Shown: positions 8,872-32,180, counted from the stretch's first letter. The stretch is 44,415 nt of DNA from a virus (IMGVR_UViG_3300037420_000784:1-44415); one strand, 5' to 3'. Notes: generated by a model from the sequence alone, not told the origin. Translations and numbers: made by a program.

Positions 8872-8990
8872 AGAACCCTCGCTGGCAAGAGGATGTGGAA
8901 ACCCCAGTTCTGTCCCTTCCAACCGAACAGCAGCGGATAGGGAGCAACGCGCTCTGGGATCATGAAGAGGTCGAAGGCGGGCGCGTTCAT
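8868..8990 (-). CDS. microprotein (40 aa), translationally coupled at both ends
   Basis: Hand translation gives MNAPAFDLFMIPERVAPYPLLFGWKGQNWGFHILLPARVL. ATGA overlaps occur with both the upstream stop (8987..8989) and the downstream start (8869..8871). Confidence 0.45.
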   Translation of the reverse strand: MNAPAFDLFMIPERVAPYPLLFGWKGQNWGFHILLPARVL

Positions 8991-10744: not shown

Positions 10745-11004
10745 TTGCCTGTCTCCGGTGCTTCGGTGACCAGCAGTTCGCGCTTGTGCACCTTCTCGAC
10801 CCGATATGTATTGGGGGTCGGGAAGTGACGCAGCACCTTAAGCGCGTCCGCCTTGGTTTCGTACCACCCGTGGCAATCGGTGAACTTCCGCGCACCCGGA
10901 TCTTCCGCGCGGCAGAAGTTGCCGTCCGGCGCGAAAAATATGTCGTACTTGAGCACCCAAATAGGTGCGTCGACCATCCGCTCGATGGGTTGCCAGCCGG
11001 TCAT
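10741..11004 (-). CDS. hypothetical protein (87 aa)
   Basis: ATGA coupling to the cro-like gene. Confidence 0.5.
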   Translation of the reverse strand: MTGWQPIERMVDAPIWVLKYDIFFAPDGNFCRAEDPGARKFTDCHGWYETKADALKVLRHFPTPNTYRVEKVHKRELLVTEAPETGK

Positions 11005-11243
11005 GCCGCCTCAGCTTCGTTAGAAACCTCAGGGCGGCGCGCCTTGGATTTGAGATATGCCAGCGCCTCAGCAGACAGCGCCTCGCCCTCGATCGGCTTA
11101 ATGGCGAGCAACGCCTTGCGCCTCCAAGGCGGAATGCGCTCGTTGGCTTTCCAGCTATGTACTGTCTGGACGGGATCGCCGGTTGCCGTGGCGATGGCAG
11201 TAGCCTCGCCAAGCACCTTGAAGATGTGATCGATGACCTGCAT
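11001..11243 (-). CDS. cro: Cro-like early regulator
   Basis: 80 aa, divergent from the repressor gene and first in the leftward operon. Its ATG lies only 9 nt downstream of a GATAAT -10 box. Confidence 0.6.
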   Translation of the reverse strand: MQVIDHIFKVLGEATAIATATGDPVQTVHSWKANERIPPWRRKALLAIKPIEGEALSAEALAYLKSKARRPEVSNEAEAA

Positions 11244-11252
11244 GGCCCGACC

Positions 11253-11280
11253 ATTATCCGAAAACCGGATAGTTTGGCAA
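11253..11280 (-). promoter_or_regulatory. leftward early promoter (TTGCCA-16 nt-GATAAT)
   Basis: The minus strand reads TTGCCA aactatccggttttcg GATAAT ggtcgggcc ATG. The operator palindrome overlaps the -10 box and the spacer. Confidence 0.6.
11255..11271. promoter_or_regulatory. operator palindrome TATCCGAAAACCGGATA
   Basis: Perfect 6+5+6 inverted repeat, with near copies at 11928..11943 and 11954..11968. Confidence 0.65.
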
Positions 11281-11340
11281 GCCCCCGCGAATCCGATTTT
11301 AGCGGAGGCGGGAATTTACCCAGCCTGTCACTATGTGGGA

Positions 11341-11919
11341 ATGGATGAAGCCGCGTTTATCATATTGATGCAGGATCGAATGGCCGCCCACAAGGTGAGC
11401 CAGACCGAGCTGGCGAAGATCGCCGGCCTCCCTTCTCAGTCAGCGGTGTCCAACCTGTTCAAGGGCAAGCGGCGCTTACGGATGGACGAGCGCGCGAAGA
11501 TAGCTGCTTACCTGGGAATCGAAGAAGAGCCCAACATTCATTGGGTTCCGCTGATTGGCCTTGCATCTGCCGGCGCTTGGGCCGAAGCTACGCAAGTGTC
11601 AGGGAAATCAATTCCTATTATGCGCCGGGTTGCCGGACCCCGTGCATTTGCCGTTACCATCAAAGGCGACAGCATGAACTTGCTACTCCCCGAAGGTGGT
11701 TACGCAATCGTTGACCCTGACCAGACCAGTCTTTACGCAGGCAAGGTCTACGTGCTTGAGAACGCTGACTGCGACACCACGGTCAAGCGCTACAAGGGAG
11801 ACCCTGCCAGGTTTGAGCCGGTCTCCAACAATCCCGACCACCAACCTCTCGATTTATCCGAAACGCAGTTCCGGGTGATCGGTCGCGTTGTCAGCTATGG
11901 AAGCGACGACGGCCTCTAA
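11341..11919 (+). CDS. cI: cI-like repressor, HTH_XRE + peptidase S24 (LexA-type autocleavage)
   Basis: HTH segment VSQTELAKIAGLPSQSAVSNLFKGKR, an Ala-Gly cleavage candidate in LASAGAW, catalytic Ser in KGDSM and Lys in TVKRY. Start taken at ATG 11341. The track ORF from 11233 would overlap cro and its promoter. Confidence 0.85.
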   Translation: MDEAAFIILMQDRMAAHKVSQTELAKIAGLPSQSAVSNLFKGKRRLRMDERAKIAAYLGIEEEPNIHWVPLIGLASAGAWAEATQVSGKSIPIMRRVAGPRAFAVTIKGDSMNLLLPEGGYAIVDPDQTSLYAGKVYVLENADCDTTVKRYKGDPARFEPVSNNPDHQPLDLSETQFRVIGRVVSYGSDDGL

Positions 11920-11927
11920 ATGAAAAA

Positions 11928-11943
11928 TATCCGAAAACCGGAT
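11928..11943. promoter_or_regulatory. operator copy TATCCGAAAACCGGAT abutting the -35 box
   Basis: Same sequence as 11255..11270. Confidence 0.6.
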
Positions 11944-11971
11944 TGACAGACTAATCCGAATATCGGATAAC
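11943..11971 (+). promoter_or_regulatory. rightward early promoter (TTGACA-17 nt-GATAAC)
   Basis: A consensus -35 TTGACA at 11943..11948, a 17-nt spacer containing an operator, and -10 GATAAC at 11966..11971. It precedes the plus-strand operon. Confidence 0.6.
11954..11968. promoter_or_regulatory. operator variant ATCCGAATATCGGAT
   Basis: Perfect 5+5+5 inverted repeat with the same half-sites as the other operators. It lies in the promoter spacer and -10 region. Confidence 0.6.
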
Positions 11972-12019
11972 CCCTCCCAGAAGCAAAGCCCTCTGGCTTG
12001 CCTCTGGGAGGTTCTACCG

Positions 12020-12232
12020 ATGGCTATCTTCGCGAAAGGCGATAGCGTTACAGACAGCGCCGCCGCTGCGTATCGCTACAGGGTCGAGACTGTGCACCGC
12101 GACGGGACCTACACCGTCCAGGCTCTGTTCGCGCTCGATGAGCACGGCAAAGATCAGCCCGGCTTCCTTGGCTATCGCTATCGCGTCAGCGCCAACAATC
12201 TTGCGCCCCTCGCTCGCACGGTGTCGGCATGA
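12020..12232 (+). CDS. hypothetical protein (70 aa), first gene of rightward operon
   Basis: GGGAGG lies 8 nt upstream of the ATG. Confidence 0.55.
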   Translation: MAIFAKGDSVTDSAAAAYRYRVETVHRDGTYTVQALFALDEHGKDQPGFLGYRYRVSANNLAPLARTVSA

Positions 12233-12561
12233 CCCAGATACCCGAAGAGCTTGTAGAGCGGATGATCGCGCTGATCCGCTGTATGGCAGCAGCAGATGTT
12301 TCCCGGGTGCCAGCGGACTTGGATATCAACTGCATAGGCGTCGGAACTGACTACGACGATGCCCGTGCCATCGCAGCCCTGCTCCCCGAGTCCGTTGATC
12401 CGGACGTACTGATCGTACGCGCCGTGCTGCATGCTCACCAGCGGGCCATGACACCGCCTGACAGCGGTTGGGGTGACATGTCCTATCTCAAAGGCAGCTA
12501 CGATCATCTGCCAGTATTTGAGGCCGCTCTGGCCGCATACAGGGCGGAGTTGGGCAAGTGA
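12229..12561 (+). CDS. hypothetical protein (110 aa)
   Basis: ATGA coupling; acidic composition. Confidence 0.5.
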   Translation: MTQIPEELVERMIALIRCMAAADVSRVPADLDINCIGVGTDYDDARAIAALLPESVDPDVLIVRAVLHAHQRAMTPPDSGWGDMSYLKGSYDHLPVFEAALAAYRAELGK

Positions 12562-12761
12562 CCGGCGCTCCCGAAGAGGATGTGGGCGAGTGGATCGAGT
12601 GGGCTCGCGCTGGCGAATGCCCGGTTGATCCGAATGTCATGGTCGAGATCATGGCGGTTCTTGCAGAAGACGGCGAGCCCCGCAAGCTGTTCAAACGTCG
12701 CGCCTGGGTCAGCGCTTGGGATAACCCGCGCGTCATCGCCTACCGGGTCGTGCGGCCATGA
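12558..12761 (+). CDS. hypothetical protein (67 aa)
   Basis: GTG start with GTGA coupling. Confidence 0.45.
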   Translation: MTGAPEEDVGEWIEWARAGECPVDPNVMVEIMAVLAEDGEPRKLFKRRAWVSAWDNPRVIAYRVVRP

Positions 12762-12958
12762 ACGCCCATACGATCCGCCATCCTACCTCTGTACCCTCAG
12801 TAGAGGAACTGGCGAAGGAATATCGCCGGTTGAACCCTCCTGCGAGAGGGGCGCCGTTCCCGGAAAGCACAGAGCCTTGGGGCTGGGATGCTGGCGAGGA
12901 TGGCGATCCGTGGAGCGGCATGGAGGGTTACGGCCACGGGCTGGGGAGGACTCGATGA
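12758..12958 (+). CDS. hypothetical protein (66 aa)
   Basis: ATGA coupling. Confidence 0.45.
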   Translation: MNAHTIRHPTSVPSVEELAKEYRRLNPPARGAPFPESTEPWGWDAGEDGDPWSGMEGYGHGLGRTR

Positions 12959-13290
12959 CCGCTGACATAATCACGATGACGCCGGAGCAGATGCTTATCC
13001 TTGACCGGATGAGCGACGATCTCGGTTACCCGTTCCGCGACATTGCATCCGACACCCTCGTGCCAGAACGGCAGTGCCGACAGATCATCCGTGGTTTCCA
13101 CGCCTCTGGGCTGGCCGCCTATGGCCCGCTGTTTGATCAGGATGGACCTGGAATTCGCGGCAAAGGCTACTGGCTGACCCGCAATGGATACGAGGCGCAG
13201 CGCTTCGTGCGTCGCATAGCTAGGGCGCAACTCGCTCATCTTTTCAATCACCCTGACACCAGCCCGTTTGGGCAGCGGAGGACCGTATGA
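12955..13290 (+). CDS. hypothetical protein (111 aa), possible winged-helix
   Basis: ATG at 12955 with a GGGGAGGA RBS and an ATGA overlap. This is the C-terminal part of track ORF 12580..13290, whose upstream part overlaps other genes. Confidence 0.5.
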   Translation: MTADIITMTPEQMLILDRMSDDLGYPFRDIASDTLVPERQCRQIIRGFHASGLAAYGPLFDQDGPGIRGKGYWLTRNGYEAQRFVRRIARAQLAHLFNHPDTSPFGQRRTV

Positions 13291-13676
13291 GCAAGGATTC
13301 GGAGCGACCCCTTACGGGGCAACCGGCTGGCGGGGCTTCGCCCCCGAGCCCTTCGGTCTCGGCCCTGTCGGGCGCTCATCAGGCGCATACGCCGGGGCCT
13401 TGGCGCCACAATCAGGTTTTCAATGGCTACGAGTTGGTCAGGGATGAAATCCTGTCAGACTCAGGGGTCATAGCTGACGATATCCGTGACCCTCGGGACG
13501 CCTGCCTGATCGCCGCCGCTCCGGATATGCTGTCTGCGCTGGAAGAGGCGGATGCACGCATTTCCATGCTGCACTCAGCTCTCGATATCAGCGCTAAGCG
13601 CAATCAGGCGGGGGTTCTGGACGCCGAGCAACGCAAGCGCCGCACCGCCATCGCCAAAGCCCGAGGTCTCTCATGA
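13287..13676 (+). CDS. hypothetical protein (129 aa)
   Basis: GGAGG lies 5 nt upstream, with an ATGA overlap. Confidence 0.5.
   Translation: MSKDSERPLTGQPAGGASPPSPSVSALSGAHQAHTPGPWRHNQVFNGYELVRDEILSDSGVIADDIRDPRDACLIAAAPDMLSALEEADARISMLHSALDISAKRNQAGVLDAEQRKRRTAIAKARGLS
13344..13364 (+). repeat. 21-nt exact repeat / cUUCGg-capped hairpin (partner at 21972..21992)
   Basis: CCGAGCCCTTCGGTCTCGGCC is identical at both loci but is read in different frames (PSPSVSA versus TEPFGLG). Confidence 0.7.
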
Positions 13677-13912
13677 GCGCGCCCGAAAATCCGCAGGCAT
13701 TTCCGGGCGGCGCGCCATCGAAATACGACGGCAGCGTAGCATCAGGAATGTCCCTGCGAGATTACTTCGCTGGGCAGGCGCTGGCAATGTCCATGCCTGA
13801 CAGCCCGCAACACTTGGCTGATTGGGCATACCGAGTTGCCGACGCCATGGTCGCCGAGCGCGCAAAGGCAGTTCGTTCCCACCATTCCGATACTAAGGGA
13901 GGAGGCCTGTGA
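13673..13912 (+). CDS. hypothetical protein (79 aa)
   Basis: ATGA coupling. Confidence 0.45.
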   Translation: MSAPENPQAFPGGAPSKYDGSVASGMSLRDYFAGQALAMSMPDSPQHLADWAYRVADAMVAERAKAVRSHHSDTKGGGL

Positions 13913-19194: not shown

Positions 19195-19518
19195 ATGACT
19201 GCGCCCCGCCCCTTCAGTCCGGAGACGCTTTCTGAGCGCTGGGGTTGCAGCGCGGAGAAAGTCCGGCGCATGTACCACGATGGCGAGCTTTCCGGGTTCC
19301 GGCTCGGCAAGCTGATTCGCATCACTGCCAACGAGGTCGAGCGCTACGAGTGTCAGAATACCGAATTGTCGAACACCGCGGAAGATTCTCCCTCGCCTAC
19401 AACGACGACGAGCGAGGACGCGTTCGAATTGCGCTTGGCACGGATGACCGCGGGATCGCGGAGGCTCGCGCTCGCGACATCTGGCGCACCCGCACTACGC
19501 CCCAAAGCGAGCGGGTAG
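19195..19518 (+). CDS. xis: excisionase-family HTH protein
   Basis: The segment LSERWGCSAEKVRRMYHDGELSGFRLGKLIRITANEVERYE matches the MerR/AlpA-type excisionase HTH. It lies directly upstream of int. Its tail overlaps the int reading frame. Confidence 0.6.
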   Translation: MTAPRPFSPETLSERWGCSAEKVRRMYHDGELSGFRLGKLIRITANEVERYECQNTELSNTAEDSPSPTTTTSEDAFELRLARMTAGSRRLALATSGAPALRPKASG

Positions 19519-20318
19519 CGGACCTATGGCCTGTCTATGTCGCCGATCGCCAACGGGAGGTCTCTCGCAAGGACAGGTTCGACAGCCTGTGGAAGGCCCT
19601 CGCCCCGCATTTCGGGCACCGACTGGGCACCGCCATATCCCGCGACGATTGCCGGGAATACCACAAGGCGCGCAAGCGGGCGGGCAAGAGCAACAGTACC
19701 GTCAAGACCGAGCTGGAGTTTCTCCGCGCGTGCCTGCGCTTCCACTACAAGGCCAATGCGCCGAGCATATGGATGCCGCCGGACAGCAAGCCCCGAGAGC
19801 GCTATCTGAACGAAGCCGAGCGCGACAAGCTGCTGGCGTCGATCGACGCGCCGCACGTCAAGCTGTTCGTCATCCTGGCACTGACCACCGGAGCGCGAAT
19901 GAGCGCGTTGCTGGACCTGACATGGGATCGCGTCGACCTCAATGTGGGTACCGTGGATCTGAACCCCGCCGGCCGGGAGATCACCAACAAGCGCCGCACC
20001 ATCGTCAAGCTGAACGAGCGGGCGATAAACGCCCTGCGCGAGGCACGGGAAGCGCGCCAGACAGATCATGTGATCGAATATGGCCGGGAGCCGGTCAAGA
20101 GCATCCGCAAGGCCATACGGGCGGCGGCGGCACGTTCTGGGGTCCCATGCTCCCCGCACGTCTTCCGGCACACGGCTGGCGTATGGATGGCGAATGCCAA
20201 TGTCTCTATGGATCGGATCGCGCAGCGGCTGGGAACGACCGTCCGGATAGCCGAGAAGCACTATGCTAGGTTTAGCCCATCGTACCAGCAAGAGGCTGCA
20301 GACGCGCTCAACTGGTAG
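19350..20318 (+). CDS. int: tyrosine integrase
   Basis: Catalytic pattern TTGARMSALLDLTW (Arg), HVFRHTAGVWM (His-x-x-Arg) and EKHYARF (Tyr). The start is unresolved. GTG 19350 is proposed, while the track ORF reaches back to 19245. Confidence 0.85.
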   Translation: MSEYRIVEHRGRFSLAYNDDERGRVRIALGTDDRGIAEARARDIWRTRTTPQSERVADLWPVYVADRQREVSRKDRFDSLWKALAPHFGHRLGTAISRDDCREYHKARKRAGKSNSTVKTELEFLRACLRFHYKANAPSIWMPPDSKPRERYLNEAERDKLLASIDAPHVKLFVILALTTGARMSALLDLTWDRVDLNVGTVDLNPAGREITNKRRTIVKLNERAINALREAREARQTDHVIEYGREPVKSIRKAIRAAAARSGVPCSPHVFRHTAGVWMANANVSMDRIAQRLGTTVRIAEKHYARFSPSYQQEAADALNW

Positions 20319-20333: not shown

Positions 20334-20355
20334 GGTACCACCCGAACCTCTCGGG
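20334..20355 (+). repeat. attP arm-type repeat GGTACCACCCGAACCTCTCGGG
   Basis: A 21/22 direct repeat of 20533..20554. The two copies flank the tRNA-like core. Confidence 0.6.
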
Positions 20356-20382
20356 CAACCCTCGGAAACCCGCAGAAATGCG

Positions 20383-20430
20383 TGGTGGGCGCTGAGAGAC
20401 TTGAACTCCCGACCCTCTCGGTGTAAACGG
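20383..20430 (-). other. attP core: 3' fragment of a tRNA-Val(UAC)-like gene (anticodon loop to CCA)
   Basis: The minus strand reads CCG TTTACAC CGAGA GGGTC GGGAG TTCAAGT CTCTC AGCGCCC A CCA. It contains a T-arm, a 3' acceptor strand, CCA and a 7-nt loop with TAC. There is no matching 5' acceptor strand or D-arm upstream. Confidence 0.65.
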
Positions 20431-20532
20431 TAGGGACGCCAGCCAATCTGGGATTTTCTTGCCAACAAACGACGGGATTTCGCCACTTTAGGCCGGTTTC
20501 GTTCCGATTGCGTTCGCGTCAGTGGTACATCT

Positions 20533-20554
20533 GGTACCAGCCGAACCTCTCGGG
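20533..20554 (+). repeat. attP arm-type repeat GGTACCAGCCGAACCTCTCGGG
   Basis: Partner of 20334..20355. Confidence 0.6.
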
Positions 20555-20558
20555 AAAT

Positions 20559-20823: not shown

Positions 20824-20946
20824 ATGGTTCAGATCATCGAAATCCAGGAAGCCTACGGCACCGATTTCTATGTCTATCGCGGTGAGACGCTGGTGCGGGT
20901 TTGCCCCTCTCTGGGTATGGCTCGTGAAGTGGCTGCTGGCTTGTGA
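20824..20946 (+). CDS. microprotein (40 aa) leading the accessory operon
   Basis: GGAGG lies 7 nt upstream. GTGA coupling to the C5-methyltransferase gene. Confidence 0.45.
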   Translation: MVQIIEIQEAYGTDFYVYRGETLVRVCPSLGMAREVAAGL

Positions 20947-21617
20947 ACCGTCCAAAGCTTCTCGACCTGTTCTGCTGCGCTGGCGGTGCCGCGATGGGCT
21001 ATCATCTGGCCGGCTTCGATGTGGTTGGCGTAGATAAGGTGCGCCGGCCGCGGTACCCGTTCGAGTTCATACAGGCGGACGTGCTGGACCTGTATCCGGC
21101 TTTCGTCGCGGGGTTCGATGCGGTGCACGCAAGTCCGCCGTGCCAGAAGCACACCAGCATGAAAACGATGCCAGACGCTCGGGAACATGTCGACCTGATA
21201 CCCGAGACGCGCGCGCTTCTGAAGCTCGCTGGCATCCCCTACGTGATCGAGAACGTTGTCGGCGCGCGCGCCCATCTAGTCCGCCCGACGCTCTTCTGCG
21301 GCTCTATGTTCGGGCTCGGCGCCAAAGGTGCGCAACTTCAACGTCATCGCCTGTTCGAGGCCAGCTTCTTCCTGATGTCGCCCGGCGAGTGTGCTCACAG
21401 CGCGCCGACTATCGGCATCTATGGCGAGGGCTGTCGGGACAGCCGGCGTAAGTACGACAAGACCATTCCTGAGTTCACCGTGGAGGATGGCCGCATCGCT
21501 ATGGGCATGCCCTGGGCATCGATCGCTGAGCTGTGTGAGGCGATCCCGCCAGCCTACACCGAGTTCATCGGGCGGCAGCTTCTCGCTCACATCGAAGCGC
21601 GAAGGCTTGCAGCATGA
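20943..21617 (+). CDS. miniature DNA (cytosine-5) methyltransferase, orphan
   Basis: 224 aa with motif I LDLFCCAGGAAMG, motif IV SPPCQ, motif VI ENV, motif VIII LQRHRLF, and IX/X-like FTVEDGRIAMGMPW and EAIPPAYTEFIG. The variable region is very short. Confidence 0.8.
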   Translation: MNRPKLLDLFCCAGGAAMGYHLAGFDVVGVDKVRRPRYPFEFIQADVLDLYPAFVAGFDAVHASPPCQKHTSMKTMPDAREHVDLIPETRALLKLAGIPYVIENVVGARAHLVRPTLFCGSMFGLGAKGAQLQRHRLFEASFFLMSPGECAHSAPTIGIYGEGCRDSRRKYDKTIPEFTVEDGRIAMGMPWASIAELCEAIPPAYTEFIGRQLLAHIEARRLAA

Positions 21618-23356: not shown

Positions 23357-23533
23357 ATGTTGTGGCTATATCTGGGGCTGGTGGTCTGTCTGGTCGGAGC
23401 CCTGATTATCAGTATGCGTAGGGCGCCTGGAGAAACCGGCACCTCACCTGTCGCGATTGTCCTGATCTGCGTATTCGTAGGCGTGTTCCTGGCCGGCGCA
23501 GGGCTGCTTCTTAAGGCTATGTCGCTTGGCTGA
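23357..23533 (+). CDS. membrane microprotein (58 aa, two TM)
   Basis: Hand translation gives MLWLYLGLVVCLVGALIISMRRAPGETGTSPVAIVLICVFVGVFLAGAGLLLKAMSLG. GAGAGGG RBS. Its end converges on and overlaps the 3' end of the acyltransferase gene by 17 nt. Confidence 0.5.
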   Translation: MLWLYLGLVVCLVGALIISMRRAPGETGTSPVAIVLICVFVGVFLAGAGLLLKAMSLG

Positions 23534-25265
23534 TCCGCTGCTTGTTGGTGATGATGGAGGCCATCGCCACGCCGTCGCTCTTCCGGCTCAAGGTGGCCTC
23601 GATTAAAATCCCGTCCACATCCTCTTCCCAGACAGAGGCCCGGTAGATAATTGAATCGTCCGGGGAGCAATTGGCGAAATAGCACACATCGCGTGCGATC
23701 GTGCTGAACTCGGTCGAAAGCCTCGAGCCGCCAATGGCATTGGCGCAGAGGTCGGCAATCGTCGGATAGGCCGCGAAATAGAGCAGGCCCACCCCGTTGA
23801 TATCGTGCGGCGGTTGAAGCGCATATTCCGTCTCGTGCAGAACGGGCTTGGCCTCTGCCGAGCGCCGCTCCCGATATTCCAGCCCGAATGCCGGCATGGA
23901 TTCCAGCGCAGGGATAGGACAGCCTTCAGGGATATGCGGCTGGCCCTTGAGCAGCGAAGTGTTCTGGCCATGCTCGCCGAAGCGGGCGAAGCTACTCATC
24001 ACCTGGGCCTTGAGCGAGCCCGTTGGGGCATCCAGCTCGGCATCCCCGAAGAAGATCCCGGCCCCTAGTCGACTTGCGCTCATATCGATCGAGAAGGCGT
24101 CATTCTCCCGGAACGAAGTCAGGGGTTGTTCGGCTTCCCAGCGCACACGGGTGAAGGTGGCGTAGAGACGTGATCCGGTATCGTCCGCGATGGCCGCGCT
24201 GGTGGTATCGAGACCTCGGGTGATGTTGGCCCAGTGGATATCCCCAAGCTCCTTGAACAGCCATGCCTCCGACAGGCCGCTGAGCGCCATCTGGGGCATG
24301 TTCAGGAGGTAGGAGCGCTTTTCCCCCGCGCCATGGGCTTCGGTGGCCGGTGGGGCAACCTGCGCCATCGTGGGGGCGATATGGATCGTTTTGCCTCCGG
24401 GAATGCGCAGCATGTCGCGCGGCGTCTGTATCCGCCCCCAGGCCGCGTCGCTGATCGAGGCTTTCCCTACTGCCTCGAGCGAGAGCCGGAGATTGATCAG
24501 ACCGAAACTGTCGATAGGCAGCTCCGACAGAGGCGTATCCCAATCGTCGAACTCCGGCATTTCCTTGCGCAGGCATTCGAGCAACTGGGCTTCGGTGAAA
24601 AGCGGTGTTTCAGGCTCGACATCCTGGACCTTGGAGAAGTCCGGAACCTCCCGGCAAATCCGCGTGATGAAGGATATCGCCCCGCCTACGCTGGGATTGG
24701 TCAAGAACTCCGGGATATGCGCCGTGGCGGCCTTCAGGTCCTCGGGCTCGAGTTCCCACCAACGGGTCGCTTCCAGCGCCTCGATAACATCGGGGGGAAA
24801 GCGGAACCGAGCCAATATGGCGGGCGCGCCGATCATGATCGCATAGGGCGGAACGTCCCGTGAGACGACCGCCCCGGCCCCGATCACGGCACCGCGTCCG
24901 ACACGCTTGCATTCCGGGGTGATGATGCAGTTATGGCCTAGCCATACGTCATCCTCTATGACGGTCTGGCTCGAATGGACCTGATCATCAGCGACGAGGC
25001 CCATGCTCTTCATGTAGAAGACGGGATGGGTCGAAAGCGATCCCGTGGGATGGTTCGCGTCGATGATCCGGGCAGATCCGGCAATCGAGCAATAGCGCCC
25101 TATCCGGGTCCCCGGAGGAATGCGCCAGCGGTCGAAGGCGCCTATCGTATGGCCTCCGATCTCGATACCGTATTTTCTTGCGAAGCGGCTCCGGAGAGCG
25201 GTGCTGTTGGCATGGTCGCGGATCAGCTTGACCAGCGCCTTGTCGACCAGATTTTGAACCATCAC
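23517..25265 (-). CDS. tri-domain fusion: hexapeptide (XAT/Vat-type) acyltransferase + ACP-like domain + LnmK-like double hot-dog domain
   Basis: 582 aa. Residues 1-190 carry IGRYCSIAGSARII, STHPVFY, DDVWLGHNCIITPECKRVGRGAVIGAGAVVSRDVPPYAIMIGAPAILARFRF and WWEL. Residues ~225-290 carry LSELPIDSFGLINLRLSLE. Residues ~315-582 carry MPQMALSGLSEAWLFKELGDIHWANI and HDINGVGLLYFAAYPTIADL. Confidence 0.75.
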   Translation of the reverse strand: MMVQNLVDKALVKLIRDHANSTALRSRFARKYGIEIGGHTIGAFDRWRIPPGTRIGRYCSIAGSARIIDANHPTGSLSTHPVFYMKSMGLVADDQVHSSQTVIEDDVWLGHNCIITPECKRVGRGAVIGAGAVVSRDVPPYAIMIGAPAILARFRFPPDVIEALEATRWWELEPEDLKAATAHIPEFLTNPSVGGAISFITRICREVPDFSKVQDVEPETPLFTEAQLLECLRKEMPEFDDWDTPLSELPIDSFGLINLRLSLEAVGKASISDAAWGRIQTPRDMLRIPGGKTIHIAPTMAQVAPPATEAHGAGEKRSYLLNMPQMALSGLSEAWLFKELGDIHWANITRGLDTTSAAIADDTGSRLYATFTRVRWEAEQPLTSFRENDAFSIDMSASRLGAGIFFGDAELDAPTGSLKAQVMSSFARFGEHGQNTSLLKGQPHIPEGCPIPALESMPAFGLEYRERRSAEAKPVLHETEYALQPPHDINGVGLLYFAAYPTIADLCANAIGGSRLSTEFSTIARDVCYFANCSPDDSIIYRASVWEEDVDGILIEATLSRKSDGVAMASIITNKQRISQAT

Positions 25266-25274
25266 GCTTTCTAC

Positions 25275-25293
25275 CCTCCCTCGGGAAGGGAGG
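25275..25293 (-). promoter_or_regulatory. stem-loop pairing the acyltransferase Shine-Dalgarno (AGGGAGG) with CCUCCCU
   Basis: A 7-bp perfect stem (25275..25281 with 25287..25293) and a 5-nt loop. It lies between the tailspike stop and the acyltransferase start, and may also act as a terminator-like element. Confidence 0.5.
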
Positions 25294-25322: not shown

Positions 25323-27971
25323 CTAGCCGTTCGCTCCAATAGGAGTTACGCCCGCAACGCGTTGAACCCCGGCATATGTCCAGCCAGGCCGCGCGCTGGC
25401 GCAAGTCGGGACGCTTGTGCCCGCCGTGATCGTAAAGGCCGCGTTAGTGGTCACCGACCCGACATTTCCGGTGCCCGGAAGCGTGCCGCGGCGCGCGCGG
25501 TTGTTTTCGTACAGGGCATTTTCCGGCGCGCCTGGGAACGAGCCGCTTTCGTTCTCGAAAGCCTCCATCAGGCAATCCACGACCGACAGCCCATCGGCAC
25601 AGGCACGGCTGGGCGGTGTGGGTGTCTGATCGTCCCGGAACAGGAACCCGGCGGTATTGGCGACGGCCTGTGTCGGGCCGCTGAAGATCGTGGAGGTGCG
25701 AAGGCTGAAATTGGTGATCGCATCCACCCATTGTGCCAGGACGCCCGTCTCCCCGCACGACAGGATGCAGTCCTTCCAGAAGATATTCTTGGCCGACTTT
25801 ATGAGCCCGTATTGCTGGCCTGCAGCAACTGTTATCGCCTTCGAAAGCGTCCCGGCCTGGGCGGCATAGGTGACGATTCTCGCATACTGGCCCTTGTTCG
25901 CACCTGTGCGGATCTTGAGGAAGTCCTCTCCGGCGACGGGTGAAATCGCGACGCTGGTCGTGTAGGTGTTGCCAGTCCCGGTGATATCGATGGTTCCGGA
26001 TTGCGCAGCCGTGGTGTTCGCAGGCTGGAGCAGCATTAGGTTGCCGATAGCCGCGCCCGACGCCTTCCAGCGATAGACGAACAGGCCGTCCGGGCATGGA
26101 TTGGCCGCGCCCTGCGTTGCGTACTGGCAGAGATCGGCGTGACCGATAATGGCGCCGACGATCTGGTCTCCGACGCTGGTAAAGCCGGTCGCGGTCGAGA
26201 AATCGCCCGAGACGATCAGGCCCGTCATGGTGCAGGTATGCGTGCCAGATCCCGCCGAAGAGGTGGCGATGGCCGCGCCGCCGCGCGTCGCTGCGATCTG
26301 GAAGCTGTTCGCGGTAAAGCCGGTGGCGATGATATAGTACGTCGTGCCCGCCGTAATGCCGGTTGGGAGGGCGCCCGTGGTGGTGAAGACGACCGGAGTT
26401 CCGACAATCAGGCGATGGCCGGTCGCGGAAATAACCGCCGGAGTGGCATTGCTGATCGTCGCCGTGAACGCGCGGTTCTGCGCCTGAAGATGGGCACCTC
26501 CATACCAAAGGCTCTCATCATTCCCACCCGTGCCCGAGGCGCGGCTGCCACCATTGAGACCGTTGGTCGCGTTGGTGCCGGTCTTCCACTTGTAGAAGCT
26601 TGCCGGCTGGTCGTTCGGATTGGCCTGGATAGTGACCCCGCCGACGCCGTTGATTTCGTCGACCGCGATATAGGTCGCGCCCGTGCCGTCGTAGACTGCC
26701 TCGTTGATGGTCAGGTGATCGACATCGTGGCGGCGCTGCGGGAATGGCGTATCAATGGCGATATTGCCGTTGACCAGCCGCGTGTTGTTCATCGTGTTCA
26801 CGATGCCCGAAATATCGGCTGAGATGTACAGAACGTCGAAGGTGATATTCCCGACGATGTTGCGCGCCAGGCTTAGCTGCGTCATCCCGATCATCGAGAT
26901 GTTGCATTCGCGCGCCGAGTATTTCTGGCCCTCATTCGCGCGGAAGGTGTTCTGCAATATGCCGTAGTTGTAGTACCCGGTGCCAAGCATCGGAGCGGTC
27001 GCGGACTTCGCGCCGCCCTGGCGCCACCAGTTGCCGGTCTCCTGAGGGCCTCCGACCCCGTTGCTGTCGATATGATCGCACTTGTAGAAATCGACGAAGG
27101 TGGCGTTCGACACTTCGCGCCCGCTGATCTGGGCCATGGTCGCCCAGTCGAAGGTGATTTCCTGGAAATTGACCTGAGACAGCGCCACGCGCCACACGCC
27201 ATTGCCTCGGGTGATGCTGTTGGTCGTGCGGCTCAGCCACGTGATGGTGACGCTCGAACGGGTGTTGCCCACAGTCGGAGTGACGGTTACCTGGCGAGTG
27301 TTGACCGTGACCGTGTAGTTCGTGTCCTCGACATAGGAGCCCGGCGCAACGCGGAGGATGCCGCCCTTGAAGGCTGCGTCGGTCATCTGCGTCATCGCAT
27401 AGCCGATATGGCGCCACGGCGACCCGGCGGTGCCGGTATTGGCATCGCTGCCCGTGGTGGATACGAAGCGCTCGGCGCGCGTGAGCAATCCGGTCACGCT
27501 GGTATTGAGCGTACACGTCCAGGTGACCCGTTTCACATAGCCGTTGAGCGGGTAGATATCCGCGGTATAGGTCACTTCCCCATTGAAACCGGGGACGCTC
27601 TCGGGCTTGAAGTGGAAGGCCGGCAGCGAAAGTGTGGTGTTCCACGTCTCGGCGGTGATATCGGTAGCAGTCCCGGTGTAATCGTAGATGCGGACCTTCG
27701 CGATGTAGTTCGCCGCACCGCCGCCCACGTCTCCACCGATCGGACAAGTATAGGTCAGATCATCATTGATGCCATCATAACCAACCCAGATCTTTTCCGC
27801 CTCCAGGAACCCACCTCCGGCGGAATATGGCCACCCGCTTCCCTGCAGCGTGGCATCCACGGCAGGAGGCGCGACGGGGGTCGCGTTCATGAGAATGACG
27901 GGCACGGATGGCGCAACCGCCGCGCCAAAGCTCTGCGTCGCCGCCACCATGAGGATGTCTTTGAAGTTCAT
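25323..27971 (-). CDS. tailspike with right-handed beta-helix (depolymerase-type) domain
   Basis: 882 aa. RFVSTTGSDANTGTAGSPWRHIGYAMTQ...VAPGSYVED is the typical entry motif of pectate-lyase-fold tailspikes. The protein is long, Gly/Thr/Asn-rich and of beta-type composition. Confidence 0.75.
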   Translation of the reverse strand: MNFKDILMVAATQSFGAAVAPSVPVILMNATPVAPPAVDATLQGSGWPYSAGGGFLEAEKIWVGYDGINDDLTYTCPIGGDVGGGAANYIAKVRIYDYTGTATDITAETWNTTLSLPAFHFKPESVPGFNGEVTYTADIYPLNGYVKRVTWTCTLNTSVTGLLTRAERFVSTTGSDANTGTAGSPWRHIGYAMTQMTDAAFKGGILRVAPGSYVEDTNYTVTVNTRQVTVTPTVGNTRSSVTITWLSRTTNSITRGNGVWRVALSQVNFQEITFDWATMAQISGREVSNATFVDFYKCDHIDSNGVGGPQETGNWWRQGGAKSATAPMLGTGYYNYGILQNTFRANEGQKYSARECNISMIGMTQLSLARNIVGNITFDVLYISADISGIVNTMNNTRLVNGNIAIDTPFPQRRHDVDHLTINEAVYDGTGATYIAVDEINGVGGVTIQANPNDQPASFYKWKTGTNATNGLNGGSRASGTGGNDESLWYGGAHLQAQNRAFTATISNATPAVISATGHRLIVGTPVVFTTTGALPTGITAGTTYYIIATGFTANSFQIAATRGGAAIATSSAGSGTHTCTMTGLIVSGDFSTATGFTSVGDQIVGAIIGHADLCQYATQGAANPCPDGLFVYRWKASGAAIGNLMLLQPANTTAAQSGTIDITGTGNTYTTSVAISPVAGEDFLKIRTGANKGQYARIVTYAAQAGTLSKAITVAAGQQYGLIKSAKNIFWKDCILSCGETGVLAQWVDAITNFSLRTSTIFSGPTQAVANTAGFLFRDDQTPTPPSRACADGLSVVDCLMEAFENESGSFPGAPENALYENNRARRGTLPGTGNVGSVTTNAAFTITAGTSVPTCASARPGWTYAGVQRVAGVTPIGANG

Positions 27972-28495
27972 GGTGTGGGTCCGTTCACATTTACGCGGTG
28001 CTGCGCTTCAACCCAAGTGATCAGCGCATCGAGCTGGATCGCCTGTTCCGTCGCTAGGAGACGGTCGGCGATAGAAAATCCGTCACCGGGCGCTTCAAGA
28101 GCGGCGCTGGCGGAGACGGGTACGGTGGGCAGTTGCGCTGCTCCGGAAGCACGGGGATTGGCTTGGGCGTTGATGCGCAGCCTGAGAGTATCAGCGCGCT
28201 TGCGAGCATCGGCCAGACGAGCTTCGTAGTCATTGGACACCTCTTGCGTGATTTGCTGCTGTTCGGCTTTCACCCTCGCTGCGTTTACCAGATCGTCGGC
28301 ACGGGCCTTTGCGGCGGCTGCGCGGTAATCTGCCACCGTTCGGTCAAATGCCGCCTGTGTGGCTTCCTGGCGCTTCTGCCAGTGCCTCGCGTCGCTGCGG
28401 GCGATCAGCAGGGCAACGGTGAGCGAGAGGACGGCAGCGGCCCCGAGAAGGGCTTTCCAGTGCTTGGCGGCGAGGGCGATAGCTTCGGTCATCAC
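27968..28495 (-). CDS. i-spanin (Rz-like)
   Basis: N-terminal TM (ALLGAAAVLSLTVALLIA) followed by a coiled-coil with Ala/Arg/Gln richness. Follows lysozyme and a holin candidate. Contains an embedded lipoprotein ORF. Confidence 0.75.
   Translation of the reverse strand: MMTEAIALAAKHWKALLGAAAVLSLTVALLIARSDARHWQKRQEATQAAFDRTVADYRAAAAKARADDLVNAARVKAEQQQITQEVSNDYEARLADARKRADTLRLRINAQANPRASGAAQLPTVPVSASAALEAPGDGFSIADRLLATEQAIQLDALITWVEAQHRVNVNGPTP
28054..28233 (-). CDS. o-spanin (Rz1-like lipoprotein), fully embedded in +1 frame of the i-spanin gene
   Basis: Hand translation gives MTTKLVWPMLASALILSGCASTPKPIPVLPEQRNCPPYPSPPAPLLKRPVTDFLSPTVS. Lipobox LSGC, a Pro-rich mature part, and a GAGG RBS 6 nt upstream. 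At 59 aa it is absent from the ORF track. Confidence 0.8.
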   Translation of the reverse strand: MTTKLVWPMLASALILSGCASTPKPIPVLPEQRNCPPYPSPPAPLLKRPVTDFLSPTVS

Positions 28496-30284: not shown

Positions 30285-32180
30285 TCAGATCGGAAGCAGG
30301 GGGATGTTGGGAGAGAAGAGGATCTGCTTGACATCGCGGATCACGAACTCGCCGCTGCCGGCGAACTGCCATACGCCCAGCAGCCCGGACTGGTAGCCAT
30401 GGGTGAGCGTGAAGGTCGTCGCGAGCGGTGCCGCGCCATCTACCGCGATACTCAGGATGCCGCCGGAAGTGATTTTCACCCGGTAGGTGTGCTCCGCAGC
30501 GGTATAGTCGATGCTGTTGCTGATCATGGCGGAGGTGAAGGAGCCACCTTGAGCATCCGCCTCCCATACGGTCAGATCGGTCCCGTTGACGCCGACGATG
30601 ATATGCTGGGATGCAGCAGGGCCGGAAGTGAGCGTGCCCGTACATGCGCCGATGACGAAGCCGGTCGACCCGGCGAACTTGACCTTGAACTCAAGCTCGA
30701 GGTCATCTTCGCGCCAATCGACCAGGAAATCATCGAACAGCGAGACGCCCGCGCCCGTGATCGACATGGCCGGCGTGAGCGCGCTATCGGTCCTTCCAGG
30801 CGAACCGTAATAGGGTAGCGGCACCGTCGCAGGACGCGAGCGAATATAGCCCACATTGACCGCCCCGGTATTCGTGGTCTGCATATAAAGCAGATGGAAA
30901 CCCGCACCGATGCGACGCGCGACGTAGATCTCGTCGAACTCGAATGTGGTGGTCCAGCCTGGACGATACTGGCGGAGGGGGTTTCTGGCATAGCCGTCGA
31001 TGCTGACCGCGATGGCGCTATCCCCAGCGGCATAGCAAAGCATCTCGATGGAGATATCCATTTCCGGCGCGTCCGGAGGCACATAGAAGATGATACGCAT
31101 CGTGTTACCGGTGGCCTGCGCAGAGCCGACCACAACGCCCGTCCGCGAGGTGGGTGCCTGATAGATGACCTCGTTGCTGGCGCGGTGGAACGAGCCCGAC
31201 AGACCGGCGATCCGGCCCGGCGCGTCGAACGTGACCGCCTGCCCGCCCAGCAACGCCATGGCGAGATTGTTGCCGGCAAAGATATAGGCGCCGTGGTCGC
31301 TGGCCTGTGTTCCGTGAACGCCATCGATCAGCGTCGAGACCGGATCTACCCCCTGATCGAAGCGCGCGCGGAACAACGCGAACTGATCGACAAGGATGAC
31401 GTTCATGTTCTCCGCGACATCGCGCATGACCTGCGCGAAACGGGCCGTGTTCTCCGCGCGCAAGCGCGAGCCGAAGCCGGTAGGGGCGGCGGGATAGTTC
31501 AGGCACGGGAAGGGCGTCGCGAGGATCGGCACGATGTCATTGGCGCGGCAAGTCAGGGCGAATGCCTCCAGTGCCGTACGATACTCTTCCGGCGTGGTGG
31601 CGTAGTCGCCCTCGGCGTCATTGACACCGTGGTTGCAGATCATGGCGCTTGCCGACGAAGACGCTGCCTTGGCGGCGAAGGTGGAGCCAGAACCGTCCGT
31701 GCCAGCGATCATCTGGGTAGCCGTCGTTCCGATGATGCCTCGGTTGACGACTGTTAACGCTGAATTGCCATGCCAGTTATTAACGCAATTCTGCATTTGC
31801 AGCGGGGAAGGCGTGGCGACCTGAGCGAAACCGTTGTTGGCATCCGCACCCCACATCGTGCTGTCGCCGAATGCTTCGATAGTGCGCGCAGTGCCGGCGG
31901 CGAGCGCGGTGACAAGCATCTCTATGCGAGCGCGGTCGGAGAAATTGTCGTCTACCGCATCAAGAGCCTCTTGCACGGTTTGGCCCGACGCGGTGCCCAC
32001 CAGAGTGGCGCCGGTATTCGCTGCCAGGTCGGTACGGAGGCTCAGATCGCCTCCGCCGGCCTGCACGATTTCGTCTGGCGTCGTCCGATAGACCCCGGCG
32101 CCCGTGTCCACTATAAGCGCGTCATCCCCGCTCAAGGCGGGAACCGGCGGCAAACTTTGGGGTCGGATTGGGGTGGCCAT
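30285..32180 (-). CDS. tail protein with SGNH/GDSL esterase domain
   Basis: All SGNH blocks are present: FGDSTMWG (I), NRGIIGTTA (II), NHGVNDA (III) and DGVHGT (V). It has a fibre-like N-terminus and a beta-rich C-terminal domain. TGATG-coupled to the collar fibre gene. Confidence 0.8.
   Translation of the reverse strand: MATPIRPQSLPPVPALSGDDALIVDTGAGVYRTTPDEIVQAGGGDLSLRTDLAANTGATLVGTASGQTVQEALDAVDDNFSDRARIEMLVTALAAGTARTIEAFGDSTMWGADANNGFAQVATPSPLQMQNCVNNWHGNSALTVVNRGIIGTTATQMIAGTDGSGSTFAAKAASSSASAMICNHGVNDAEGDYATTPEEYRTALEAFALTCRANDIVPILATPFPCLNYPAAPTGFGSRLRAENTARFAQVMRDVAENMNVILVDQFALFRARFDQGVDPVSTLIDGVHGTQASDHGAYIFAGNNLAMALLGGQAVTFDAPGRIAGLSGSFHRASNEVIYQAPTSRTGVVVGSAQATGNTMRIIFYVPPDAPEMDISIEMLCYAAGDSAIAVSIDGYARNPLRQYRPGWTTTFEFDEIYVARRIGAGFHLLYMQTTNTGAVNVGYIRSRPATVPLPYYGSPGRTDSALTPAMSITGAGVSLFDDFLVDWREDDLELEFKVKFAGSTGFVIGACTGTLTSGPAASQHIIVGVNGTDLTVWEADAQGGSFTSAMISNSIDYTAAEHTYRVKITSGGILSIAVDGAAPLATTFTLTHGYQSGLLGVWQFAGSGEFVIRDVKQILFSPNIPLLPI

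Follow-up and report, generated by a model that had tools for sequence, protein, structure and literature searches.

The 44,415-nt viral stretch that we analyzed (IMGVR_UViG_3300037420_000784:1-44415; hereafter, the window) contains a minus-strand gene that encodes, in one 582-residue polypeptide, a xenobiotic-acetyltransferase (XAT)-type left-handed beta-helix (LbH) acyltransferase domain, an acyl carrier protein (ACP)-like domain, and a double hot-dog domain of the LnmK family (Table 1). A preliminary description of the window had proposed this open reading frame and this three-module anatomy, and we recovered the same frame, on the minus strand, with domain limits almost exactly as proposed. 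The start codon in our reading is GTG; the JGI start is an ATG one codon later, which gives 581 residues. The fusion gene is the last of the late block and lies about 3 kb from the integrase gene and attP, in agreement with the earlier view that the window is of phage origin and that the gene is attP-proximal; the attP region is flanked by 25-nt direct repeats. A 57-nt spacer separates the fusion gene from the preceding late gene on the same strand and contains a hairpin (CCTCCC-N7-GGGAGG), the 3′ arm of which is a Shine–Dalgarno sequence (GGAGG) 9 nt ahead of the GTG. We detected neither a separate promoter nor an intervening terminator for the fusion gene using an E. coli-type consensus, which is weak for an alphaproteobacterial host. 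The gene lacks phase-variation repeats like those of neuO, and neither it nor its neighbours matched a known defence system in PADLOC.

Table 1. Positions of the fusion gene, its domains and key residues, and neighbouring features in the window.
Feature	Position	Strand	Basis
Tyrosine integrase	19245..20318	+	PHROG integrase, 1.6e-46
attP region by integrase: tRNA 3′ fragment	about 20378-20440	-	Readable T-arm/acceptor/CCA sequence
XAT-ACP-LnmK fusion gene, 582 aa	23517..25265	-	ORF list, domain matches; stop codon 23517-23519
LnmK-family double hot-dog domain, residues 312-582	23520..24332	-	TIGR04098, Foldseek, conservation
Invariant motif HDINGVGLLYFAAYP	residues 487-501, LnmK-family domain	-	Conservation among homologues
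Phe371, counterpart of LnmK Phe65	24153-24155	-	Alignment
Tyr368, counterpart of LnmK Tyr62	24162-24164	-	Alignment
Flexible linker, residues 293-311	24333..24389	-	pLDDT <50 at 294-310; length and sequence vary among homologues
Acyl carrier domain, residues 223-292	24390..24599	-	Segment profile, conservation, AF2
Ser253, predicted phosphopantetheine site, after Asp252	24507-24509	-	Aligned on modified Ser of ACPs
Helical connector, residues 191-222	24600..24695	-	AF2 helices 193-202 and 211-214; length varies among homologues
XAT-type left-handed beta-helix acyltransferase domain, residues 1-190	24696..25265	-	Hexapep, CatB structure match
Trp108	24942-24944	-	Conservation among homologues
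Catalytic His72, protruding loop	25050-25052	-	Aligned on CatB NxxH-motif His
Hairpin in the 57-nt spacer	25275..25293	-	Read directly from sequence
882-aa ORFan, upstream neighbour, candidate receptor-binding protein/tailspike	25323..27971	-	Same adjacency in L090

The fusion gene had been described as standing right after the tailspike gene, an identification that our searches did not bear out. The 882-residue product of this neighbour, which lies downstream of the lysis cassette, is an ORFan without a match in PHROGs, Pfam, the PDB, or a tblastn search of INPHARED; compared with 5.8 billion proteins, it matched only itself, and its single-sequence AF2 model (pLDDT 31.5) was unusable. Because an independent assembly (L090), built from different reads, shows 100% identity across 2.1 kb, both flanking genes included, and because full-length homologues number more than 100, the fusion is real, and the assembly chimera or frameshift artefact that the preliminary description had raised is ruled out. 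GC content is 0.612 for the gene and 0.616 for the phage genome, with a similar match at third codon positions (GC3), and all family-invariant residues in an alignment of 51 homologues are intact in the phage protein. The AF2 model of the 582-residue fusion (mean pLDDT 86.3) and the Pfam and NCBIfam profiles revealed three soluble folds, with neither an AT3 domain nor a membrane segment.

The N-terminal domain (residues ~1–190) matched Pfam Hexapep (1.1e-8), and its best solved relatives were CatB, XAT, and Vat enzymes (top match 6mfk, 2.2e-20). CatB, Vat, PaXAT, and ApmA were also its best relatives in sequence, sharing the loop histidine and a C-terminal helical region with a WWxL motif. The structural features of the XAT class are present: LbH coils, a protruding loop bearing the catalytic histidine, and a conserved tryptophan. 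His72 falls on the catalytic histidine in alignments to 6mfk, 6pu9, and 8j40, and both His72 and Trp108 are kept in at least 90% of the 51 homologues; the function of this His/Trp pair in LbH enzymes has been described (PMC3046976). Scores against the NCBIfam equivalogs for CatB (80.9 bits; cutoff 350) and Vat (77.1 bits; cutoff 300) were far below the cutoffs, and the domain should be classed as neither. The phosphonate-operon LbH family TIGR03308 scored 108.8 bits, the structure of NeuO (PDB 3jqy) was a weak match (2e-4), and LpxA and LpxD appeared among the weak LbH matches. The nearest relatives of this domain are xenobiotic (small-molecule) acetyltransferases and not known sugar acyltransferases, a counterpoint to the glycan acceptor considered below.

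Three profile matches had been anticipated for the protein, one per module. Hexapep and TIGR04098 were found; Pfam PP-binding (PF00550) was not, as the phage sequence alone scored 15.1 bits (E=0.029) against a gathering threshold of 20.8, although many homologues of this segment do reach that threshold. A profile built from 23 homologues of the segment matched 148 solved ACPs (best 7.7e-7), NodF among them, and aligned the Asp–Ser pair on the phosphopantetheine serine. Asp252, Ser253, Arg260, and Trp276 are invariant in the 51 homologues, and the AF2 model of the domain contains helices at residues 225–235, 253–267, 273–277, and 282–287, with Ser253 at the N-terminus of the second. The ACP-like segment and the role of Ser253 suggested in the preliminary description are thus upheld, and Ser253 is probably the site of phosphopantetheinylation, as judged from these alignments. 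No phosphopantetheinyl transferase or glycan genes were found elsewhere in the phage among the ORFs tested.

Assignment of the C-terminal domain to the LnmK/Pnap_2097 family, also made earlier, was supported by profile and structure searches. Residues 319–573 matched positions 2–270 of the 270-position TIGR04098 model (LnmK_bifunc) at 169.9 bits (cutoff 100), whereas TIGR04099 (Pnap_2097 family) scored 126.0 bits, barely above its cutoff of 125; NCBI naming of the homologues is likewise mixed, some being called Pnap_2097 family and others LnmK family. LnmK was the sole match of a profile of this domain among solved structures (2.7e-8). AF2 pLDDT is mostly >85 across residues 312–582, and in a Foldseek search with the predicted structure LnmK took the first seven places, with E values of 4e-18 to 4e-16 and target TM 0.69–0.72, followed by FatA-type acyl-ACP thioesterases (E about 1e-13). 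LnmK is a bifunctional methylmalonyl-CoA:ACP acyltransferase/decarboxylase whose substrate is (2R)-methylmalonyl-CoA and which delivers propionyl to a dedicated ACP. In LnmK, Tyr62 is the nucleophile and Phe65 stabilizes the enolate (PMC11350588). The LnmK segment PT-Y-LA-F corresponds to RL-Y368-AT-F371 in the phage protein, a pairwise alignment that is weak alone but agrees with the full-length HMM match; Tyr368 is invariant and Phe371 is kept in at least 90% of the 51 homologues. Because identity to LnmK is only ~21%, the substrate, and even decarboxylase activity, could differ from those of LnmK. Our literature searches found no paper on Pnap_2097, TIGR04098, or TIGR04099, and none of the papers mentioning LnmK concerns glycans; nothing of use emerged from searches on carrier-dependent N-acylation of O-antigens or on glycans bearing propionyl or malonyl groups.

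The three modules had been called normally separate proteins. However, the same XAT–ACP–LnmK fusion, already named by NCBI, occurs in more than 100 bacterial clusters, chiefly from Alphaproteobacteria, and the full triple fusion is present at 36 of 79 genome loci; LnmK-family/Pnap_2097 fusions as a whole form 542 clusters at 50% identity. The clade nearest the phage protein (50–72% identity) consists of chromosomal singletons amid housekeeping genes without glycan neighbours, so genomic context does not point to an acceptor for this clade. Since the triple fusion is common and the closest relatives of the phage protein (55–72% identity) are chromosomal, the phage did not invent it, and the phage copy looks like a gene captured from an alphaproteobacterial chromosome. 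With no bacterial relative closer than 72% identity, this capture was not recent. The full fusion was not found in other phages in INPHARED or, using single-sequence patterns, in IMG/VR, and when 159 loci from bacteria and metagenomes were searched by tblastn with 39 phage proteins, no phage structural genes emerged near the homologues. A profile scan for further phage copies yielded only a split version, an LbH gene and an ACP–LnmK gene beside baseplate and tail-fibre genes on an unrelated phage contig (L088); a second phage lineage has acquired the ACP–LnmK cassette independently.

Across these loci, ACP–LnmK is joined or adjacent to five types of acyltransferase. XAT domains are fused to its N-terminus (36 loci); a NeuD/PglD-type LbH domain is fused to its C-terminus in a protein adjoining a DegT aminotransferase (L075); a WcaF/Mac-type LbH is encoded by a separate gene with a 4-nt stop/start overlap (L088); a GNAT lies directly upstream in Acidobacteria sugar operons; and an MBOAT with a GDSL/SGNH protein lies downstream in Xanthobacteraceae. 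We rejected an XAT-type identity for the LbH partners of L088 and of Bacteroidota, which are WcaF/Mac-like or generic LbH proteins (24% identity). A 58-residue convergent ORF was also rejected as a second gene of the cassette, the same-position 58-residue ORF in Rhodobacter (L093) being unrelated. The two-domain ACP–LnmK forms are located within nucleotide-sugar or polysaccharide loci, and glycan genes thin out with distance around ACP–LnmK loci, from 2.9 per 10 kb close by to 0.3 farther away. For full fusions, the corresponding decay, from 0.68 to 0.22 per 10 kb, is based on small counts, with seed proteins drawn from some of the same loci. Divergent full fusions adjoin genes for PMT_2, an epimerase, and MurJ; for AT3-SGNH and Wza; or for SGNH, Wzy, and Bac_transf proteins. 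Megasynthases as long as 6,499 residues also begin with an LnmK-like domain, consistent with in-cis ACP loading, and no ketosynthase or lipid genes recur near ACP–LnmK. The repeated pairing of ACP–LnmK with acyltransferases in sugar and polysaccharide loci leaves the logic of loading, carrying, and transfer, put forward in the preliminary description, well supported.

We give about an even chance to the explanation that the phage protein is a self-contained, carrier-dependent acyltransferase, captured from an alphaproteobacterial chromosome, that serves surface-glycan modification and lysogenic conversion. In the scheme that we infer for its chemical steps, acyl group, acceptor, and time of expression in lysogens, a host phosphopantetheinyl transferase would first attach the pantetheine arm to Ser253 in the carrier domain, giving its holo form. 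The LnmK-like double hot-dog would take a carboxylated short acyl-CoA, either malonyl- or methylmalonyl-CoA, decarboxylate it, and pass the acyl group via Tyr368 to the tethered pantetheine arm, yielding acetyl- or propionyl-S-ACP. Flexible linkers would allow the loaded arm to reach the thioester tunnel of the XAT-type beta-helix, where an acceptor hydroxyl or amino group, activated by His72, would receive the acyl group. The acceptor would most probably be a surface glycan (LPS/O-antigen, capsule/EPS, or glycolipid) at a precursor stage, still in the cytoplasm, and the gene may serve as a moron for lysogenic conversion or receptor masking, by analogy with neuO of CUS-3.

The phage C-terminal domain shares its double hot-dog fold, NCBIfam family, and Tyr62/Phe65 counterparts with LnmK of the leinamycin LnmK/LnmL pair, but the phage ACP is fused in cis and no PKS genes lie nearby; the acyl group of LnmK enters a polyketide beta-branching cassette, whereas that of the phage protein is predicted to pass to an LbH transferase. 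Carrier-dependent acylations of the envelope include those by LpxA/LpxD (LbH enzymes using acyl-ACP), DltC–DltB (a carrier and an MBOAT), NodF–NodA, and RfbK-O of Vibrio cholerae O1, all of which move a phosphopantetheine-borne acyl or aminoacyl group to a sugar or glycan. Their carriers are loaded by FAS, adenylation, or ligase enzymes and not by a decarboxylating hot-dog, and to our knowledge none of these systems is a single polypeptide or occurs in phages. The Xanthobacteraceae cassette of ACP–LnmK, MBOAT, and SGNH resembles the Dlt layout. GNAT-type PKS loading domains such as that of CurA, which decarboxylate malonyl-CoA and load acetyl on an adjacent in-cis ACP, are functional analogues of the LnmK-like domain, which also occurs N-terminally in megasynthases; however, the folds are unrelated and the CurA product goes to chain extension instead of one-step transfer. 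Stand-alone xenobiotic acetyltransferases (CatB, Vat, PaXAT, and ApmA; ~210 residues) transfer acetyl from acetyl-CoA onto antibiotics, whereas the phage XAT domain shares its polypeptide with a module that would make the donor.

[quoted passage not shown] The integral-membrane Acyl_transf_3 proteins of the Oac/OafA type differ from the soluble phage fusion, which has no AT3 domain. NeuO, like the phage enzyme, is a soluble, phage-encoded LbH acyltransferase with a catalytic histidine and an opposing tryptophan, and the CUS-3 topology (attL-int-neuO<-tailspike) matches the int/att position of the fusion gene, with the 882-residue gene only a candidate for the tailspike. NeuO belongs to a different LbH subfamily from the phage XAT domain, uses free acetyl-CoA without a carrier or loading domain, and is phase-variable through heptanucleotide repeats. 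NeuO is reported to modify the phage receptor and to raise phage resistance (PMC13001214).

A different acceptor is conceivable. The XAT domain might use the built-in ACP to acylate a diffusible xenobiotic, antibiotic, or metabolite, making the gene a resistance-type or metabolic moron, as the affinity of residues 1–190 for CatB, Vat, and ApmA and for TIGR03308 would suggest; moreover, nearest full-length relatives that stand alone amid housekeeping genes are what a self-sufficient detoxifying enzyme should have. We nevertheless consider this unlikely, because the CatB and Vat cutoffs were missed widely (about 80 bits against 300–350), the recurrent contexts of the ACP–LnmK cassette are all glycan-related, both phage copies adjoin tail or candidate receptor-binding genes, and we know of no XAT enzyme that requires a carrier protein. 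A decidedly unlikely arrangement is one without a relay, in which the XAT domain uses free acetyl-CoA while ACP–LnmK primes another pathway (lipid or polyketide), or in which the C-terminal domain is a thioesterase-like hydrolase. The His/Trp pair is a standard acetyl-CoA site, and the rank of FatA-type thioesterases directly after LnmK, together with the low identity to LnmK itself, fits a hydrolase. Independent pairing of ACP–LnmK with five acyltransferase types, however, is hard to explain without a donor–transferase relationship; the TIGR04098 score is well above its cutoff with the Tyr62 and Phe65 counterparts kept, and the genes expected of another pathway do not recur nearby.

The position of the gene in the late block allows a role in the lytic cycle, in which late co-transcription would provide an enzyme that masks receptors on lysing cells and debris, sparing progeny, or that alters some host molecule in favour of the burst. 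Such a role is highly unlikely in our estimate: the short spacer on the same strand and the lack of a detected promoter or terminator favour it, but the scan that found none relied on the E. coli-type consensus, surface-glycan change is slow against a lytic cycle, and the neuO-like position by int/att is typical of conversion genes. That the gene is a recently captured passenger without a selected function in the phage, as its absence from other phages in INPHARED and IMG/VR and the lack of phage genes near the 159 other loci might suggest, is extremely unlikely given the intact invariant residues, the genome-like GC and GC3, the 72% identity to the nearest bacterial relative, and the independent gain of the same cassette by a second phage lineage.

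A broader form of the surface-glycan explanation is possible but doubtful. Here, ACP–LnmK would be a widespread donor module for glycan acylation that supplies a non-standard, short, carrier-bound acyl group to interchangeable transferases, and two unrelated phages would have captured it to re-decorate their receptor; the new acyl group (e.g., propionyl from methylmalonyl-CoA) would be poorly handled by ordinary acetyl-esterase tail enzymes. If so, one self-loading polypeptide would provide a new lysogenic-conversion chemistry. If the surface-glycan explanation is right, such a polypeptide is an unusual means for a phage to re-decorate its host, and a function could be given to the named but uncharacterised LnmK-family/Pnap_2097 fusions, so far understood through one polyketide enzyme. 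Bacteria and at least two phages would then acylate surface sugars from a decarboxylatively loaded carrier and not directly from acetyl-CoA, which could account for unusual acyl decorations of O-antigens and exopolysaccharides, and NeuO would gain company among the few soluble acyltransferases that phages encode to modify a receptor. As a single polypeptide, the phage protein offers a compact and directly testable system.

The tail module of the phage itself contains an SGNH esterase domain, carried by a 631-residue protein. Kinship of this domain with the SGNH gene beside a Sphingomonas fusion was rejected, as the two are unrelated; its presence in the tail suggests that acylated glycans matter for the phage.

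The preliminary description divided the 582-aa product of the target gene into an N-terminal left-handed beta-helix (LbH) acyltransferase, an acyl carrier protein (ACP) segment and a C-terminal LnmK-like domain, and searches of Pfam, NCBIfam and solved structures agreed with it on the three modules and their boundaries. Pfam detected Hexapep (1.1e-8), and PP-binding on the target sequence alone was sub-threshold (15.1 bits vs a cutoff of 20.8). TIGR04098 (LnmK family) scored 169.9 bits vs a cutoff of 100, with the model covered over its full length by residues 319-573, and TIGR04099 (Pnap_2097) scored 126.0 bits vs 125; the CatB and Vat models matched residues 55-185 at about 80 and about 77 bits, vs cutoffs of 350 and 300. 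Among solved structures, the N-terminal third resembled CatB, xenobiotic acetyltransferases (XAT), Vat and ApmA (best 2.2e-20), and LnmK was the sole match for the C-terminal part. The fusion is genuine: L090, a contig assembled independently from other reads, shows 100% identity across 2.1 kb that cover the end of the neighbouring 882-aa gene, the target gene and the next small ORF, which rules out an artefact. The GC content of the gene is 0.612 vs 0.616 for the genome.

In an alignment of 51 full-length homologues (37-73% identity), Asp252-Ser253 (the ACP 'DS' motif), Arg260 and Trp276 are invariant, and the beta-helix residues His72 and Trp108 are kept in at least 90% of sequences. [quoted passage not shown] A profile of the carrier segment only matched 148 solved ACPs, with their modified serine aligned to the DS motif. 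Conservation is highest in the C-terminal domain, with stretches such as PQMAL-GLSE-W, RLY368ATF371TR and the invariant HDINGVGLLYFAAYP, and the profile of this domain matched only LnmK (2.7e-8), placing PT-Y-LA-F of LnmK on RL-Y368-AT-F371. In LnmK, Tyr62 acts as the nucleophile that accepts the acyl group, and the enolate formed when (2R)-methylmalonyl-CoA is decarboxylated is stabilised by Phe65 (2024 review, PMC11350588). The 51-sequence alignment yielded a confident AlphaFold2 model (mean pLDDT 86.3), in which Ser253 is the first residue of helix 253-267 and residues 294-310 form a disordered tether.

We consider it probable that the protein operates as a three-step relay of loading, carrying and transfer. 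A host PPTase would turn the carrier domain into holo-ACP, acetyl or propionyl would be loaded decarboxylatively via Tyr368 onto the Ser253-pantetheine, and His72 would catalyse acyl transfer in the beta-helix domain. The closest enzymology system is LnmK/LnmL, and the relay principle resembles that of LpxA/LpxD, DltC-DltB and NodF-NodA. Domains working independently, or a C-terminus that is thioesterase-like, would be an improbable alternative. In Foldseek, LnmK entries make up the seven best matches (E about 1e-17, target TM about 0.7), and FatA-type acyl-ACP thioesterases rank directly after them.

The window begins and ends with the same 127 nt in direct orientation, an exact match which shows that the genome is complete, either circular or terminally redundant, and 44,288 bp long. 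Its products include portal, large terminase, major head and tail proteins, lysozyme, integrase, RusA and ERF recombinase, and no nucleotide-level relative was found in the phage database. The genome has 61% GC and encodes an integrase, unlike the virulent Tb-group phages, and appears to belong to a temperate relative of Brucella phages with an alphaproteobacterial host. A tRNA 3' fragment is probably the attP core, and the 25-nt direct repeats flanking it could be integrase arm sites; ARAGORN found no complete tRNA in this region. The late block reads, in transcription order, 884-aa gene, tail collar/fibre gene (266 aa), 631-aa GDSL/SGNH gene, lysis cassette, 882-aa ORFan and target gene. Because the corresponding block of phage Tb ends collar - fibre - P22-like tailspike - endolysin, the last two genes are an addition at the end of the window's late block, some 3 kb from attP. 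The 882-aa gene had been taken for a tailspike, an identity that the searches did not support: the protein matched only itself among 5.8 billion proteins, had no Pfam, PHROG, PDB or phage match, and is encoded downstream of the lysis cassette, where related Tb-group phages do not place their tailspike.

Features of the window and of comparison loci
Feature	Coordinates	Strand	Remarks
Terminal direct repeat, 127 nt	1-127 and 44289-44415		exact
DNA methyltransferase	9651-10322	-	N6_N4_Mtase domain
Direct repeats, 25 nt	20334-20358 and 20533-20557		92% identical
tRNA 3' fragment	about 20378-20440	-	T-arm, acceptor stem, CCA; just after integrase gene
DNA methyltransferase	20943-21617	+	matches PHROG 363; adjoins attP region
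58-aa ORF	23357-23533	+	two predicted membrane spans; converges on target gene
Target gene	23517-25265	-	582 aa
Hairpin CCTCCC-TTCCCGA-GGGAGG	25275-25293	-	in 57-nt spacer 5' of target gene
882-aa ORFan	25323-27971	-	directly upstream of target gene
175-aa Rz-like ORF	27968-28495	-	lysis cassette
59-aa ORF	28054-28233	-	lipoprotein signal (…LILSGCAS…); other frame within 175-aa ORF
631-aa late protein	30285-32180	-	between tail collar/fibre gene and lysis cassette
Major head protein	42086-43099	-	82% identical to virulent Brucella Tb-group podophages (Perisivirus)
L088 (phage contig) region	5298-11617		Baseplate_J, Mu Gp48, fibre-like ORF; converging cassette
L039 (Xanthobacteraceae MAG) cassette	6987-13705		shared with MAGs L033 and L037
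L075 (Chitinophagaceae MAG) gene	9959-11695		578 aa; ACP - LnmK-like - PglD_N/NeuD-type LbH

The target gene starts with GTG, 9 nt 3' of GGAGG (JGI starts it at an ATG one codon downstream, giving 581 aa). Its Shine-Dalgarno sequence is the 3' arm of the spacer hairpin, and translation initiation may therefore be structure-controlled. The convergent 58-aa ORF overlaps the 3' end of the gene by 17 nt and is also present in L090; the 58-aa ORF that a Rhodobacter locus (L093) has in the equivalent place proved unrelated. In the lysis cassette, the nested 175-aa and 59-aa ORFs are a predicted Rz/Rz1-type spanin pair.

A protein search with the target returned 603 matches, more than 100 of them full-length fusions of 580-630 aa, named by NCBI 'LnmK family bifunctional acyltransferase/decarboxylase' or 'Pnap_2097 family protein' and found in Sandaracinobacteroides, Phenylobacterium, Caulobacteraceae, Sphingomonas and Xanthobacteraceae. 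The triple fusion arose in bacteria. The nearest relatives (72, 63, 59, 55 and 53% identity) are all chromosomal, beside rpmA and a GNAT gene, murI-plsY-dprA-topA, or hisS and a GST gene, so the phage copy is a captured host gene, and the capture was not recent given only 72% identity to the nearest relative. The architecture is already catalogued in bacteria, where it is functionally uncharacterised (no papers on Pnap_2097/TIGR04098 fusions were found in a search outside the subscription literature); what is new is that a phage carries it, at a neuO-like position.

Genomes of 185,579 species, one per species, contained 176 relatives, and neighbours of the best 79 loci (36 full fusions, 37 two-domain ACP-LnmK, 6 LnmK only) were clustered, with recurrent ones annotated by Pfam and NCBIfam. 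The two-domain form turned up repeatedly in several contexts. Sugar-nucleotide operons of Acidobacteria contain, in this order, NTP-transferase, 4,6-dehydratase, C-methyltransferase, RmlC-like, DegT aminotransferase, GNAT, ACP-LnmK, O-methyltransferase and GT2 genes. A Xanthobacteraceae cassette joins NDP-sugar dehydratase, Acyl_transf_3, ACP-LnmK (about 450 aa, of which about 100 aa are an N-terminal addition), MBOAT and GDSL/SGNH genes; this ACP-LnmK, MBOAT and SGNH layout resembles Dlt and Alg systems and suggests that an acyl group carried on ACP is exported to a glycan outside the cytoplasm. The L075 protein, whose LbH part matches TIGR03570 (160.3 bits) and whose gene lies directly 3' of a DegT aminotransferase gene, is an independent fusion with a domain order unlike that of the target, and at other two-domain loci the LbH gene next to ACP-LnmK is a separate one, PglD-like or generic. 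Acyltransferases of five kinds have therefore been combined independently with the carrier-plus-loader cassette, as would be expected if the cassette provides their acyl donor.

Glycan-family genes are densest close to the target: moving outwards from ACP-LnmK in 2.5-kb steps, there are 2.9, 1.6, 0.9 and 0.3 hits per 10 kb. The same steps give 0.68, 0.51, 0.34 and 0.22 around full fusions, a trend that is no more than suggestive because counts are small and seed proteins came partly from the same loci. Three divergent full fusions examined through precomputed Pfam annotation all lie in envelope-glycan surroundings: one beside MurJ, PMT_2, epimerase, NTP-transferase-GT2 and HldE, one beside Wza and AT3-SGNH, and one beside Wzy_C and Bac_transf/EpsI/EpsH, with an SGNH gene 24 nt downstream on the same strand.

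The sole relative of the target in IMG/VR lies on L088 (IMGVR_UViG_3300005511_000510), a 12.7-kb contig. Its cassette comprises a 266-aa ORF without assigned function, a Hexapep gene of WcaF/Mac type and an ACP-LnmK gene, the latter two with a 4-nt stop/start overlap; this ACP-LnmK shares 43% identity with that of the window. As this cassette converges on baseplate and fibre genes, two unrelated phages have placed an LbH transferase and ACP-LnmK beside host-recognition genes. The other 159 loci examined (2.07 Mb) had no phage structural genes near the homologues, so phage carriage of the module is rare.

The closest phage analogue of the target is NeuO, a soluble, acetyl-CoA-dependent LbH O-acetyltransferase (PMC3046976). 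Its substrate is the K1 capsule, the receptor of the phage (PMC13001214, PMC3046976). The CUS-3 record reads attL, int (+), neuO (-), endosialidase tailspike (-), and the window matches this topology around int/att, with an ORFan as the upstream gene. The target differs from NeuO in its XAT-subtype LbH domain, its added carrier and loader domains and its lack of phase-variation repeats. That the acceptor is a glycan and that the gene serves receptor masking or conversion is a tentative reading, to which we give slightly less than even weight; its main gap is that the clade nearest the phage gene lacks glycan-gene neighbours. Relay and glycan role, taken as one statement, are evenly balanced, and the functional interpretation in the preliminary description is borne out only in part. 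Acylation of a small molecule is unlikely. A lytic-cycle role is more doubtful still; that the gene is a mere passenger is very improbable.

In the 631-aa protein, residues 103-279 match a GDSL/SGNH esterase domain (Lipase_GDSL_2, 1.8e-11) and the N-terminus gives a weak tail-spike PHROG match; the protein may be a virion-borne glycan deacylase by analogy with G7C-type phage esterase tail proteins. If so, one phage would carry both acyl-removing and acyl-adding enzymes.

An exhaustive search of 1.84 billion representatives found the LnmK-like domain in only 542 clusters (50% identity), in four architectures: triple fusion, ACP-LnmK (about 340-395 aa), stand-alone (about 270-300 aa) and megasynthase N-terminus (up to 6,499 aa). 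In proteins P0178-P0254 (713 to 6,499 aa), presumably PKS/NRPS megasynthases, the domain lies at the extreme N-terminus, a placement that fits an in-cis ACP loader and suggests a starter-unit loading role undescribed for LnmK itself.
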